DNA of 64,000 nt from a virus (Duplodnaviria > Heunggongvirae > Uroviricota > Caudoviricetes). The stretch is taken from IMG/VR virus record IMGVR_UViG_2718218100_000003, one strand, 5' to 3'. Of the stretch, positions 21,001-27,000 are shown piece by piece (positions within the stretch are counted from its first letter, which is position 1; every line of letters begins with the position of its first letter). The position numbers are program-made.

Positions 21001-24000
21001 CAGTGGTGAGAGCGAGCGACTCATAATCGCCAGGTCGCTGGTTCAAATCCAGCAAGGGCCACCAACCGCCATTAGCTCATCGGGATAGAGCGTCAGCCTT
21101 CGAAGCTGGTTGCGCGAGGTTCGAGTCCCCGGTGGTGGTCCATTATCGGTATTCTGCGTTGTTAGCTCAGCAGGACAGAGCAATTGCCTTCTAAGCAATC
21201 GGTCACTGGTTAGAATCCAGTACAACGCGCCACACTTATTTTCCCTGGCTCGCTTTTGCGGGCCTTTTTTATATCTGCGCCGGGTCTGGTGCTGATTACT
21301 TCAGCCAAAAGGAACACCTTGTATATGAAGTGTATATTATTTAAATGGGTACTGTGCCTGTTACTGGGCTTTTCTTCGGTATCCTATTCCCGGGAATTTA
21401 CGATAGACTTTTCGACTCAACAAAGTTATGTATCTTCGTTAAATAGTATACGGACAGAGATATCGACCCCTCTTGAACATATATCTCAGGGGACCACATC
21501 GGTGTCTGTTATTAACCACACCCCACCGGGCAGTTATTTTGCTGTGGATATACGAGGGCTTGATGTCTATCAGGCGCGTTTTGACCATCTTCGTCTGATT
21601 ATTGAGCAAAATAATTTATATGTGGCCGGGTTCGTTAATACGGCAACAAATACTTTCTACCGTTTTTCAGATTTTACACATATATCAGTGCCCGGTGTGA
21701 CAACGGTTTCCATGACAACGGACAGCAGTTATACCACTCTGCAACGTGTCGCAGCGCTGGAACGTTCCGGAATGCAAATCAGTCGTCACTCACTGGTTTC
21801 ATCATATCTGGCGTTAATGGAGTTCAGTGGTAATACAATGACCAGAGATGCATCCAGAGCAGTTCTGCGTTTTGTCACTGTCACAGCAGAAGCCTTACGC
21901 TTCAGGCAGATACAGAGAGAATTTCGTCAGGCACTGTCTGAAACTGCTCCTGTGTATACGATGACGCCGGGAGACGTGGACCTCACTCTGAACTGGGGGC
22001 GAATCAGCAATGTGCTTCCGGAGTATCGGGGAGAGGATGGTGTCAGAGTGGGGAGAATATCCTTTAATAATATATCGGCGATACTGGGCACTGTGGCCGT
22101 TATACTGAATTGTCATCATCAGGGGGCGCGTTCTGTTCGCGCCGTGAATGAAGATAGTCAACCAGAATGTCAGATAACTGGCGACAGGCCCGTTATAAAA
22201 ATAAACAATACATTATGGGAAAGTAATACAGCTGCAGCGTTTCTGAACAGAAAGTCACAGTTTTTATATACAACGGGTAAATAAAGGAGTTAAGTATGAA
22301 GAAGATGTTTATGGCGGTTTTATTTGCATTAGTTTCTGTTAATGCAATGGCGGCGGATTGCGCTAAAGGTAAAATTGAGTTTTCCAAGTATAATGAGAAT
22401 GATACATTCACAGTAAAAGTGGCCGGAAAAGAGTACTGGACCAGTCGCTGGAATCTGCAACCGTTACTGCAAAGTGCTCAGTTGACAGGAATGACTGTCA
22501 CAATCAAATCCAGTACCTGTGAATCAGGCTCCGGATTTGCTGAAGTGCAGTTTAATAATGACTGAGGCATAACCTGATTCGTGGTATGTGGGTAACAAGT
22601 GTAATCTGTGTCACAATTCAGTCAGTTGACAGTTGCCTGTCAGACTGAGCATTCGTTAAAAAAATTCGCATGGTGAATCCCCCTGTGCGGAGGGGCGACT
22701 GGTGTATAAGGTGTCATCTCTGACGACAACCTGGAGCGAGATACGCGGGTTCAGGGACACCGGACTGAACTCACCGGGAGGCACCCGGCACCATGTACAT
22801 GATGATACAGATACGCAGTGTCAGCCCCTCTCCGGAGGGGCTTTTTATCTGAATGATTCTGTTATTTTCGCCCGTATGGGCATATTTCCAGAATGCAGCG
22901 ATGATTAAAACACTTATCTGTGATATTTCCTGTGTTTGCAGGGCACTCCTGGCTGTTTTTAATTAAATTCCAGACGTTTTTATTAAATGGGGCCACGTTG
23001 TAAATGGTGACGGGGAGCTCTTTATTATTGAGTATTACGCCTGTCCGGGTTGGTGTAAAAATACAGCCCGGAGGGAGGAAGGTATCTGACTGATACCATA
23101 ATATTAATTTTATGTTACACCATATGGCTGAAAATGATATGCCACATGCTGGCTGGATTACCGTGTCAATCACTATCCAGTTCATTTGCTTTCCTTATTT
23201 TCTTAAGGTTTTAAATGATGCCATAAATTATAGGTGATGTTTTGAAAGCAATCTGTCAGGCTGAGTTGTTTTTCTGGTGTCGTTTATTCTTTGTTTAAAA
23301 TAAGAGGGCATTTTAAATTGTCGGCGTTTTTTTGTTATATAAGAGACATGTTTTTTTTATAGCGTGTTTTTTATGTGTTACATGATTGTGTGTTCCGGAT
23401 AATTACTTTGCTGGCGGCAGGAGAGGTTATGACATTTAAACACTACGATGTGGTCAGGGCGGCATCGCCGTCAGACCTTGCTGAACGACTGACACAAAAA
23501 CTGAAGGAGGGCTGGCAGCCATTTGGCAGTCCGGTGGCCATCACGCCTTACACCCTGATGCAGGCCATTGCGGCGGAAGGTGATGTCACCACACCAGTGG
23601 CGGTGACCGGTAATGAGGGTAAGGCGGTGGCTGTCAGTGCCACCAGAGCCCCGGAGTATTACTTTGTTGTGGTTCTGGCAGGGCAGTCAAACGGCATGTC
23701 GTATGGTGAAGGTCTTCCGCTGCCGGAGACATATGACCGTCCGGAGCCGCGTATTAAGCAACTGGCGCGCCGCAGTACGGTGACACCGGGCGGTGTCGCC
23801 TGTAAATATAACGACATCATTCCGGCGGACCATTGTCTGCATGATGTGCAGGACATGAGCCGCCTTAACCATCCGAAAGCGGACCTGTCAAAGGGGCAGT
23901 ACGGAACCGTGGGGCAGGGGCTGCATATCGCCAAAAAATTGCTGCCGTTTATACCGGCGAATGCGGGCATTCTGCTGGTTCCGTGCTGTCGTGGTGGTTC

Positions 24001-27000
24001 AGCGTTCACCACCGGAGCCGATGGCACATACAGTGACGCGAGTGGTGCCTCGGAGAATTCAACCCGCTGGGGTGTGGACAAGCCGCTGTATAAGGACCTT
24101 ATCGGTCGAACAAAAGCAGCACTGAAGAAGAATCCGAAAAATGTGCTGTTTGCCGTGGTGTGGATGCAGGGGGAATTTGATTTTGGCGGTACGCCGGCAA
24201 ATCACGCAGCACAGTTTGGTGCGCTGGTTGATAAATTCCGTGCAGACCTGGCGGATATGGCAGGTCAGTGCGTCGGTGGCTCTGCTGGCGGTGTTCCCTG
24301 GATATGTGGAGATACGACGTATTTCTGGAAGCAGAAGAACGAATCCACGTACCAGACGGTGTACGGCAGCTATAAAAACAAAACGGAAAAGAATATCCAT
24401 TTCGTACCGTTCATGACCGATGAGAACGGGGTGCATGTGCCGACGAACAAACCGGAAGAAGACCCGGACATTCCGGGTATCGGATATTACGGTTCGAAAT
24501 GGCGTGACAGCTCAGCCACCTGGACGTCACAGGACAGGGCGAGCCATTTCAGCGCCTGGGCACGCCGTGGGATTATTTCCGACCGTCTGGCAACGGCGAT
24601 TTTGCGCCATGCGGGAAGAGTGGCGCTAAACGCGGGGGCATCATCGACAGTATCAGAGGTGCGCCCGTCATCGCCTTCCGGTGCAGAAGCCACAGGCGTC
24701 ACAACACTGCTCTCTTACCTTGCCAGCGAGTCAGAGGGAAGCCTGAAAGTACAGGGATGGTCAGCCAGTGGCGGCAGGGCAGAAGTGGTCAGCGATGCGG
24801 AGGGAACCGGAGGTAAGGCAGTGAAGCTGACCAAGGAGGCCGGTAAAAGCAGCTGGGTGCTGGAGTACGCCGCGGGCAACGGTGCGGCTCTGTTACAGAA
24901 AGGGGGGCAGATTCGCTGCCGCTTTAAGGTTTCGGGAGCGCTGGCTGCGAACCAGTATGTTATGGCGTTTTACTGGCCGGTCTCTTCACTGCCACAGGGC
25001 GTTGCCCTGACCGGAGGCGGAGGGAATAACCTGCTGGCAGCGTTCTACATCCAGACAGATGCAAAAGACCTGAATGTGATGTACCACAATGCGAAAGTGG
25101 CGACAAACAACCTGAAACTGGGAACCTTTGGCGCATTTGATAACGAATGGCATACGCTGGCTTTCCGCTTTGCCGGGAATAACAGCCTTCAGGTGACGCC
25201 GGTTATTGATGGTCAGGATGGCACACCGTTCACGCTGACGCAGTCACCGGTCAGTGCATTTGCGGCGGATAAACTGCATGTGACAGACATTACCAGGAAT
25301 GCGACTTACCCGGTGCTGATTGACAGCATTGCGGTGGAAGTGAACAGCACAGACACTGCGGCATGATAAAAAAACCGCCAGCGACAGGAATGGACGCTGG
25401 CGGTGGTAATACCTATGGAGAAAAAATAAAGGAACGATACTTTCGTGCTCTGGTTTTTTAAATGAAAACAGTTCTTATTGTCAACAATAACGGAAAGAAA
25501 TTATGACATTTCTGAACCAGTTAATGCTGTACTTCTGTACGGTGGTCTGTGTGCTGTATCTCCTTTCGGGTGGGTACAGGGCCATGCGTGACTTCTGGCG
25601 CAGACAGATTGACAAAAGGGCCGCTGAGAAAATCAGCGCCAGTCAGTCAGCCGGAAGCAAACCCGAAGAGCCGCTCATTTAGCGGCAACTTTCTTAATCA
25701 CATCTTTCGACGAGAAAATCCCATGTCAGAAATTACATCCCTGGTCACTGCTGAAGCGGTGAAGGAAGTCCTGCGCTCTGAAGAAGTCCGGAGCGCACTG
25801 AAACAGAAACTTCGCCATAACCTGGAAGCGCGTCTTGATGCAGAGGTTGATGCCATTCTGGATGAGCTGCTTGGTGTACAGGCAGAGCCACCGACTGAAG
25901 CGGGAGATACCACCGCAGAGAGCGGTGAAGTTCAGCCTGAATCACCGGTCGCCGATGCGACTGAACCTCAACCCGAATCGGTCATGATGCTGTAACGGGG
26001 AGTCAGGGCCATCAGTAAACAGCTGCTGGCCTTTTTCATGTTGTGAGCTTCCGGATTGCGGGAGACGGGGTATGTACCAGATGGAAAAAATCACAACAGG
26101 TGTGTCATACACCACGTCAGCGGTGGGAACGGGCTACTGGTTCCTGCAGCTGCTGGACAAAGTCTCTCCGTCCCAGTGGGTGGCAATAGGTGTGCTGGGA
26201 AGTCTGCTGTTTGGCCTGCTGACGTATCTGACAAATCTTTATTTCAAGATTAAAGAAGATAAGCGTAAGGCTGCGAGAGGTGAATAATGTCGCCGTCATT
26301 ACGCAAGGCTGTTGCAGCTGCTATTGGTGGTGGGGCTGTTGCCATAGCGTCTGTGCTCATCACTGGTCCAGGTGGTAACGATGGTCTGGAAGGTGTCAGC
26401 TACATACCATACAAAGATATCGTTGGCGTATGGACTGTATGTCACGGACACACCGGAAAAGACATCATGCCCGGTAAAACGTATACCGAAGCAGAATGCA
26501 AAGCCCTCCTGAATAAAGACCTTGCCACGGTCGCCAGACAAATTAACCCGTACATCAACGTCGATATACCGGAAACAACGCGCGGCGCTCTTTACTCGTT
26601 CGTTTACAACGTGGGCGCTGGCAATTTCAGAACATCGACGCTTCTTCGCAAAATAAACCAGGGCGATATCAAAGGCGCATGTGATCAGCTACGGCGCTGG
26701 ACATACGCTGGCGGTAAGCAATGGAAAGGGCTGATGACTCGCCGCGAGATTGAGCGTGAAGTCTGTTTGTGGGGGCAACAATGAGCAGGGTAACCGTTAT
26801 TATCTCCGCTCTGGTTATCTGCATTATCGCCTGCCTGTCATGGGCTGTTAATCATTACCGTGATAACGCCATCGCCTACAAAGAGCAGCGCGATAAAGCC
26901 ACATCCATCATCGCTGATATGCAGAAGCGGCAACGTGATGTAGCAGAACTTGACGCCAGATACACAAAGGAGCTTGCTGATGCTAATGCGACTATCGAAA

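Follow-up and report, generated by a model that had tools for sequence, protein, structure and literature searches.

The nanS-p gene after stx is a textbook feature of Stx phages, and whether its product is cargo that benefits the host or a protein of the virion is a live question. The window, a 64,000-nucleotide stretch of DNA from a tailed phage, carries such a gene and provides a concrete long-tailed test case, with an anchor loop different from that of phage phi24B and a capsid protein unrelated to that of phi24B. Judging from its sequence, the reading frame at 23429-25366 is almost certainly an intact nanS-p, which encodes a prophage-type sialate O-acetylesterase and lies in the late operon of a lambdoid prophage of E. 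coli O157 that is long-tailed and of the Stx2c type. The locus contains the following features:

20187..20675, plus strand: late antiterminator Q (Pfam Phage_antitermQ; RefSeq annotation of the homologous locus)
20989-21232: three tRNAs
21325-22284, plus strand: stx2A (Pfam RIP)
22296-22565, plus strand: stx2B (Pfam SLT_beta)
22566..23428: spacer of 863 nt between stx2B and nanS-p (composition profile)
22823..22848, plus strand: terminator-like structure, composed of a hairpin of eight pairs, six of them G-C, at 22823-22842 and a T-run (consensus scan)
22862..23185, minus strand: IraM-family (anti-adapter) reading frame of 107 residues, antisense within the spacer (NCBIfam, phrog, RefSeq)
23419..23426, plus strand: Shine-Dalgarno-like AGGAGAGG, two bases 5' of the nanS-p ATG (read from the sequence)
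23429..25366, plus strand: nanS-p coding sequence, 645 residues and a stop codon (open frame, phrog_143 matched over the full length)
26072-26287, plus strand: holin (Pfam Phage_holin_2_1)
26287-26784, plus strand: lysozyme (Pfam Phage_lysozyme)
31845..33782, plus strand: fusion of a prohead protease with the major capsid protein, of head type A (matches the major head protein family phrog_617, E=1.4e-260)

The genes are arranged in the order Q, three tRNAs, stx2A, stx2B, nanS-p, and then the lysis genes. The coordinates of stx2A and stx2B were transferred from the RefSeq annotation of the homologous O157 locus with an offset of 17299. The nanS-p gene is on the same strand as Q, and is followed on its 3' side by DUF1378, DUF826, the holin, and the lysozyme. 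Its predicted location downstream of stx2AB is thus correct, and the lysis cassette lies on its other side.

The spacer that precedes nanS-p had been described as an AT-rich leader. This description holds for positions of approximately 23100-23400, the last ~300 nt, where the G+C content is 31-33%, whereas most of the length has a G+C content of 42-53%. The spacer is also not empty, since it holds the terminator-like hairpin and the IraM-family reading frame. The latter scores 159.9 bits with NCBIfam model NF007393, for which the cut-off is 121, and matches phrog_4407 with E=6.9e-63, and the homologous O157 position is labelled 'anti-adapter protein IraM' in RefSeq.

Translation of 23429-25366 gives 645 codons without an internal stop, in agreement with the original prediction. 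RefSeq annotates the same coordinates in an O157 locus that is 99.2% identical, and the ribosome-binding site of the reading frame was judged to be good. The encoded protein is composed of three modules, a DUF1737 domain, an SGNH/SASA esterase core, and a C-terminal lectin-like jelly-roll, which are positioned as follows:

23435..23578, plus strand: DUF1737 N-terminal domain, residues 3-50 (Pfam PF08410, E=1e-15)
23639..24607, plus strand: NanS-like SGNH/SASA esterase core, residues 71-393 (3PT5 alignment, Pfam SASA)
24668..24676, plus strand: SSP motif, residues 414-416, located in the linker that joins the esterase to the C-terminal domain (motif position)
24695..25348, plus strand: C-terminal lectin-like jelly-roll, residues 423-640 (6YP6 match, Pfam PF20350)

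The Pfam matches of all three modules (PF08410, PF03629, and PF20350) are above the curated gathering cut-offs. An N-terminal DUF1737-like segment had been proposed, and the PF08410 match confirms it; the domain can be aligned with the one by which gp84 of phi24B binds the capsid. The SGNH/SASA core had been proposed as well, with its absence from a profile search named as the result that would refute it; in that search, SASA (PF03629) was found at residues 81-276 with E=3.8e-11. In a sequence search of the PDB, residues 71-393 match NanS/YjhS (3PT5) with E=2.7e-116, at ~62% identity between the core and the crystallised NanS. It contains the motifs GQSN (residues 85-88, including Ser87), WMQGE (245-249), and RASH (370-373, including His373). 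The GQSN and RASH blocks align with the equivalent blocks of 3PT5; the GQSN serine, QGE, and R(S/A)SH histidine blocks of SGNH-type esterases are as defined in PMC10462455. Residues 423-640 match the PDB entry 6YP6, named "NanS-p", a crystal structure of this domain from phi24B, with E=3.7e-139 and 216 of 218 residues identical, and DUF6645 (PF20350) covers residues 489-607 with E=2.9e-74. In the NCBIfam search, no model matches or names the NanS-p protein. There is no evidence that contradicts the assignment to the NanS-p family, and the family, the order of the domains, and the position after stx2AB are all as originally proposed.

The three-domain architecture, the length of 645 residues, and the place of the gene between stx and the lysis genes are shared with the NanS-p proteins of Stx phages (L0105/z1466 of 933W; vb_24B_21, that is gp84, of phi24B; 6YP6). 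The protein is 92% identical overall to gp84 of phi24B and 96-100% identical past residue 75, including a linker at residues 401-422 with 100% identity. The two proteins differ at residues 34-75, which are only 29% identical, and the loop of the protein studied here is three residues shorter and lacks SISSP. Close relatives are those of the Stx2c phages 2851 and 1717 and of O157:H7 Stx2c prophages (WP_000143115.1), with 98.5-99.4% protein identity, which corresponds to a handful of substitutions. They are flanked by the same genes as in the window, including the antisense IraM-family reading frame, and they share head type A. At the DNA level, Stx2c phages and O157 chromosomes match the gene with 99.2% identity, and it is annotated there as 'SASA family carbohydrate esterase', and copies from Stx2c, Stx2a, and Stx1a phages are 99% identical to the gene described here. 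By sequence comparison this copy is already known, being ~99% identical to deposited ones, and its value for annotation is small. Of 5426 complete E. coli genomes, 1189 carry the gene. Chromosomal NanS (YjhS, 3PT5) has a core homologous to residues 71-393 that shares the GQSN and R(S/A)SH blocks, and the NanS of O157 strain 7409 is 55% identical over residues 67-394; unlike NanS-p, chromosomal NanS has neither the DUF1737 nor the C-terminal lectin-like domain. Chromosomal NanS is part of the host's own sialic-acid regulon.

The function of the gene can be outlined from its homologues. After prophage induction, nanS-p would be transcribed together with stx and the lysis genes, with Q enabling read-through of the terminators. 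We assume that its expression depends on this read-through because the terminator-like hairpin after stx2B is strong. The enzyme is expected to strip both Neu5,9Ac2 and the acetylated O-glycans of mucin of their 9-O-acetyl groups, and the freed Neu5Ac could then be used by E. coli. Phage lysis would bring the protein to its substrate outside the cell, and it may also be carried on virions. For homologues, published work supports expression from the late operon and better growth on Neu5,9Ac2 or mucin (PMC10462455, PMC8065619), and both are probable here by analogy. Every NanS-p allele of EDL933 and O104:H4 that was tested is an active esterase and supports growth on Neu5,9Ac2, and z1466 ranks with the genes that norfloxacin induces most strongly (PMC8065619); mitomycin C increases nanS-p mRNA by 1-2.4 log (PMC10462455). 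The near identity of the allele in the window to such homologues suggests that it, too, encodes an active esterase.

The original prediction called the gene a moron. In its pure form this means cargo of lysogenic conversion that serves only the nutrition of the bacterial population on O-acetylated sialic acids and contributes nothing to the virion or to the life cycle of the phage, a reading to which we give somewhat less than an even chance. It agrees with the G+C content of nanS-p of 55-63%, against 31-45% in the flanks, with the location of the gene outside the head and tail modules, and with the growth advantage documented for lysogens carrying homologues (PMC8065619). The distribution of the gene argues against it. 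Copies of nanS-p are present in 351 phage records, and the closest complete genome, the O157:H7 strain 7409 chromosome, in which copy number was counted, has 11 of them and a single stxB, which is not the sporadic presence expected of a moron. The non-Stx lambdoid phage PhiR12_2_star carries nanS-p in the same place, directly after Q, and in vB_EcoS-640R1 the slot is filled instead by a gene for DUF1737 only. A crude consensus scan detected no promoter-like site on the plus strand between 20979 and 26300 and no plus-strand terminator-like site directly past the nanS-p stop codon. Moreover, the homologue from phi24B is a virion component (bioRxiv 10.64898/2026.04.10.717836). In base composition nanS-p differs from its neighbours as a moron would, but the label itself is doubtful. 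The gene is found almost universally in the late region of lambdoid prophages, whether or not they carry stx.

The primary role of such a late gene may instead be structural, which we consider slightly less probable than the purely nutritional one. NanS-p would then be a capsid-decoration protein of this long-tailed phage, with DUF1737 in the centres of the hexons and the esterase and lectin domains displayed on the virion for binding to, or passage through, mucus; the growth gain of the host would be a side effect. The model for this arrangement is gp84 of phi24B, a capsid-decoration protein that is anchored on capsid hexons by DUF1737, is among the strongest bands of the virion, and was resolved as a DUF1737 hexamer on the hexons (bioRxiv 10.64898/2026.04.10.717836). 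DUF1737 is intact in the protein from the window, and the 'tooth' tyrosine is aligned, as Tyr41 against Tyr42 of phi24B. Residues 1-33 of the N-terminal domain are 85-100% conserved while the attached esterase diverges down to ~55-70% identity, which suggests that the N-terminal domain is under a constraint of its own. On the other hand, the 29% identity to phi24B affects the loop and the linker, and this N-terminal linker contains no SSP motif; SISSP, the processing motif that phi24B has near the N terminus, is missing. The SSP motif in the second linker is the proposed autoprocessing site of gp84 (bioRxiv 10.64898/2026.04.10.717836). Furthermore, the phrog_617 protease-capsid fusion, to which the N-terminal domain would need to bind, has no BLASTP similarity to the capsid protein of phi24B (Sepvirinae), and the head type indicates that the capsid is probably not a T=9 lattice, the kind that bears gp84 on its face-centre hexons.

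The anchor loop in the window is of the variant alpha (PVAITPYTLMQ, with Tyr41). Among the compared nanS-p copies, which are phylogenetically non-independent, the beta loop occurs only with head type B (8 of 8) and the gamma loop only with head type C (10 of 10), which speaks for the structural role, whereas the alpha loop occurs with head type A (13 copies), the lambda-E-like type D (six, and seven more that are probable), and once with type C, and is therefore unmatched to a single capsid. A rule of one loop variant for one head type thus holds for beta and gamma and was rejected for alpha. The idea that the alpha N-terminal domain is merely linked to an upstream iraM module was also rejected, as iraM is upstream in eight of the 54 alpha copies with upstream DNA. 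We tentatively propose, while regarding it as unlikely, that the alpha DUF1737 is a generalist anchor that would dock the esterase and lectin domains at hexon centres in long-tailed lambdoid phages whose capsid genes belong to three or more types dissimilar in sequence (A, D, and C), and that the beta (phi24B/933W) and gamma variants are specialists for one head type each. If the generalist anchor exists, Stx2c particles carry a mucin-directed enzyme, and nanS-p is a structural gene and not a moron.

SGNH esterases of other phages act as adsorption aids. That the esterase deacetylates glycans of the bacterial surface (O-antigen or capsule) and thus exposes a phage receptor is very improbable here, since, although a review raises a role in adsorption as a possibility, the substrates shown by experiment are sialic acids and the glycans of mucin (PMC8065619) and the C-terminal domain is modelled as a carbohydrate-binding module.

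Three RNA runs of E. coli, selected by their species label, lack the prophage and have no reads that fall on stx-nanS-p. Among public sequencing runs, the stretch is present in a single one, which is a genomic library.

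The nanS-p gene occupies nucleotides 23429–25366 of the plus strand, where the frame of 645 open codons put forward in the original prediction translates without stops. The ATG, which has AGGAGAGG two bases upstream, is the likely start rather than an in-frame GTG located 18 codons 5′ of it, because every homologue begins M-[TAS]-[FI]-K-H-Y-D-V, the RefSeq annotation of a locus with 99.2% identity places the start at this codon, and Ala2 is the first residue in the cryo-EM model of the phi24B protein. The gene is positioned after stx2AB, as had been proposed, and is followed by the lysis genes:

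20187–20675, antiterminator Q
20989–21232, three tRNA genes
21325–22284, stx2A (RIP domain)
22296–22565, stx2B (SLT_beta)
23429–25366, plus strand, nanS-p
26072–26287, holin
26287–26784, lysozyme
31845–33782, prohead protease-capsid fusion (phrog_617)
39558–42800, tape-measure protein
47009–50533, J-type central fibre

ORFs of the DUF1378 and DUF826 families lie 3′ of nanS-p, and the terminase and portal genes are located farther downstream of the lysis genes. The phage is long-tailed, and the closest phage records are the Stx2c-converting phages 1717 and 2851, with DNA identities of 98.7–99.2%. A search for nanS-p matched 310 phage records, and 1189 of the 5426 complete E. coli genomes also have a match; it is an ordinary gene, known and intact, carried by a prophage of the known Stx2c kind. 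Right of the prophage, a dacD equivalog (56057–57229, plus strand, 848 bits) marks chromosomal DNA of the host.

The Pfam search of NanS-p identified three domains, all scoring above the curated cut-off, and the SGNH-type blocks common to NanS and NanS-p (PMC10462455) are all kept in the protein, in positions that align with those of NanS/YjhS from E. coli O157:H7 (3PT5):

aa 3–50, DUF1737 (Pfam, E=1e-15)
aa 81–276, SASA (Pfam, E=3.8e-11)
aa 489–607, DUF6645 (Pfam, E=2.9e-74)
aa 85–88, GQSN block
aa 245–249, WMQGE block
aa 370–373, RASH block

The predicted esterase core and DUF1737-like N-terminal segment are thus both borne out by the profile search. NanS-p matches phrog_143 end to end. Among solved structures, residues 71–393 align with 3PT5 (E=2.7e-116), and for residues 423–640 the match is the chain deposited as "NanS-p" (6YP6), with 216 of 218 residues identical. 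All seven EDL933 and all five O104:H4 alleles encode active Neu5,9Ac2 esterases, which support growth on Neu5,9Ac2 and deacetylate mucin glycans, and z1466, the nanS-p of 933W, is among the genes that norfloxacin induces most strongly (PMC8065619). Mitomycin C raises nanS-p mRNA by 1–2.4 log (PMC10462455). Because the window's protein is 96–100% identical to the phi24B homologue vb_24B_21 beyond residue 75, we confidently predict an active sialate O-acetylesterase, produced from the late transcript.

The 863-nt spacer between stx2B and nanS-p had been described as an AT-rich leader. The description holds for positions ~23100–23400, with 31–33% G+C, but not for the remainder (42–53%). The spacer also contains a hairpin and an antisense gene, the latter with a promoter-like site:

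22823–22848, plus strand, strong terminator-like hairpin with a T-run (8 pairs, 6 of them G-C)
22862–23185, minus strand, IraM-family anti-adapter ORF of 107 codons (NCBIfam IraM model, 159.9 bits, cut-off 121)
23338–23310, minus strand, promoter-like site in the AT-rich part, upstream of the IraM-family ORF

The homologous ORF is named "anti-adapter protein IraM" in RefSeq. The hairpin and the IraM-family gene correct the reading of the spacer as a leader. To be expressed, nanS-p and the lysis genes would require Q-dependent transcription past the hairpin. A crude consensus scan of 20979–26300 found no promoter-like sites on the plus strand, consistent with reliance of nanS-p on Q-modified transcription that starts at the late promoter and reads through. 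A prophage IraM beside stx2c could affect RpoS stability in lysogens; we found no study of this arrangement in the literature. The iraM/DUF1737 arrangement, with iraM on the minus strand, is also present in the non-Stx phage vB_EcoS-640R1. Separately, the E. coli RNA run X16, in which the remainder of the prophage is missing, has a stack of about 60 reads on one strand at 22540–22733, with loose ends at 22704; therefore, a short element in the stx2B-distal spacer is common to, and transcribed in, other E. coli.

The classification of nanS-p as a moron is probably wrong, and three results speak against it. The sole moron-like trait of the gene is its composition, 55–63% G+C between flanks of 31–45%. 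It is not visibly an autonomous unit, since the crude scan detected neither a promoter nor a terminator belonging to it. Nor is the gene tied to stx: among complete genomes the closest, O157:H7 strain 7409, carries 11 nanS-p-type copies and chromosomal nanS with one stxB only, the non-Stx phage PhiR12_2_star carries nanS-p directly after Q, and in vB_EcoS-640R1 the same slot holds iraM followed by a DUF1737-only gene. Furthermore, the phi24B homologue gp84 is a virion protein. It forms one of the strongest virion bands, of ~70 kDa in fresh particles and processed during storage, and its DUF1737 domain binds as a hexamer to face-centre hexons of the T=9 capsid, with Tyr42 as the anchor (bioRxiv 10.64898/2026.04.10.717836, 2026 preprint).

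The window's NanS-p is 88% identical to gp84 over residues 1–33, 29% over residues 34–75, and 96–100% thereafter; the stretch of low identity coincides exactly with the anchor loop plus the first linker. Relative to gp84 the loop lacks three residues (PVAITPYTLMQ versus ALISTAGYGAEFIQ), but the anchor tyrosine, Tyr41, remains aligned. The SISSP motif, the proposed N-proximal processing site of phi24B, is not present, whereas a second SSP motif (residues 414–416) is kept in both proteins. BLASTP detected no similarity between the capsid proteins of the two phages.

The loop and downstream capsid gene were typed in 13 phage records, the 11 copies of strain 7409, and 80 IMG/VR loci. Counting loci in which the capsid gene was reached, and bearing in mind that the copies share descent and are not independent events, the beta loop of phi24B occurs with head type B only (8/8), the gamma loop (PFSSYTDDGAALIQ) with type C only (10/10), and the window's alpha loop with types A (13), lambda-E-like D (6), and C (1). 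In seven further alpha loci the capsid gene lies beyond the flank covered, and ORFs of 642 and 530 aa match the lambda-type terminase and portal; from these sizes we infer that the loci are lambda-type. The alpha variant is thus not matched to one capsid type. Linkage to upstream iraM was rejected as its explanation, since among 54 alpha copies with upstream sequence just 8 have iraM 5′ of the gene. The loop variants do not follow the esterase classes (about 99%, 77%, and 56% identity); therefore, nanS-p is a mosaic, in which the N-domain does not simply move with the esterase next to it. Its behavior as a separately constrained module fits a virion-anchor role. Capsid binding by NanS-p in the window's phage is possible but rather doubtful on these comparisons, and virion display in long-tailed Stx phages becomes a defined question.

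The 11 copies in strain 7409 (NZ_CP038423.1) fall into three esterase identity classes of about 94–99%, 77%, and 59%, and one copy (L027) has another N-terminus in place of DUF1737. In phage Stx2a_JNE122398 (LC727840.1, locus from 15001 onward), nanS-p is probably broken: its frame stops at 268 aa, although tblastn similarity runs to residue 637. The 15 kb downstream of it contained none of the four types of head gene. The sole sampled alpha N-domain with a type C head gene, otherwise the partner of gamma, is in IMGVR_UViG_2541047174_000010, a natural recombinant that would help to show if anchor and capsid need to correspond.
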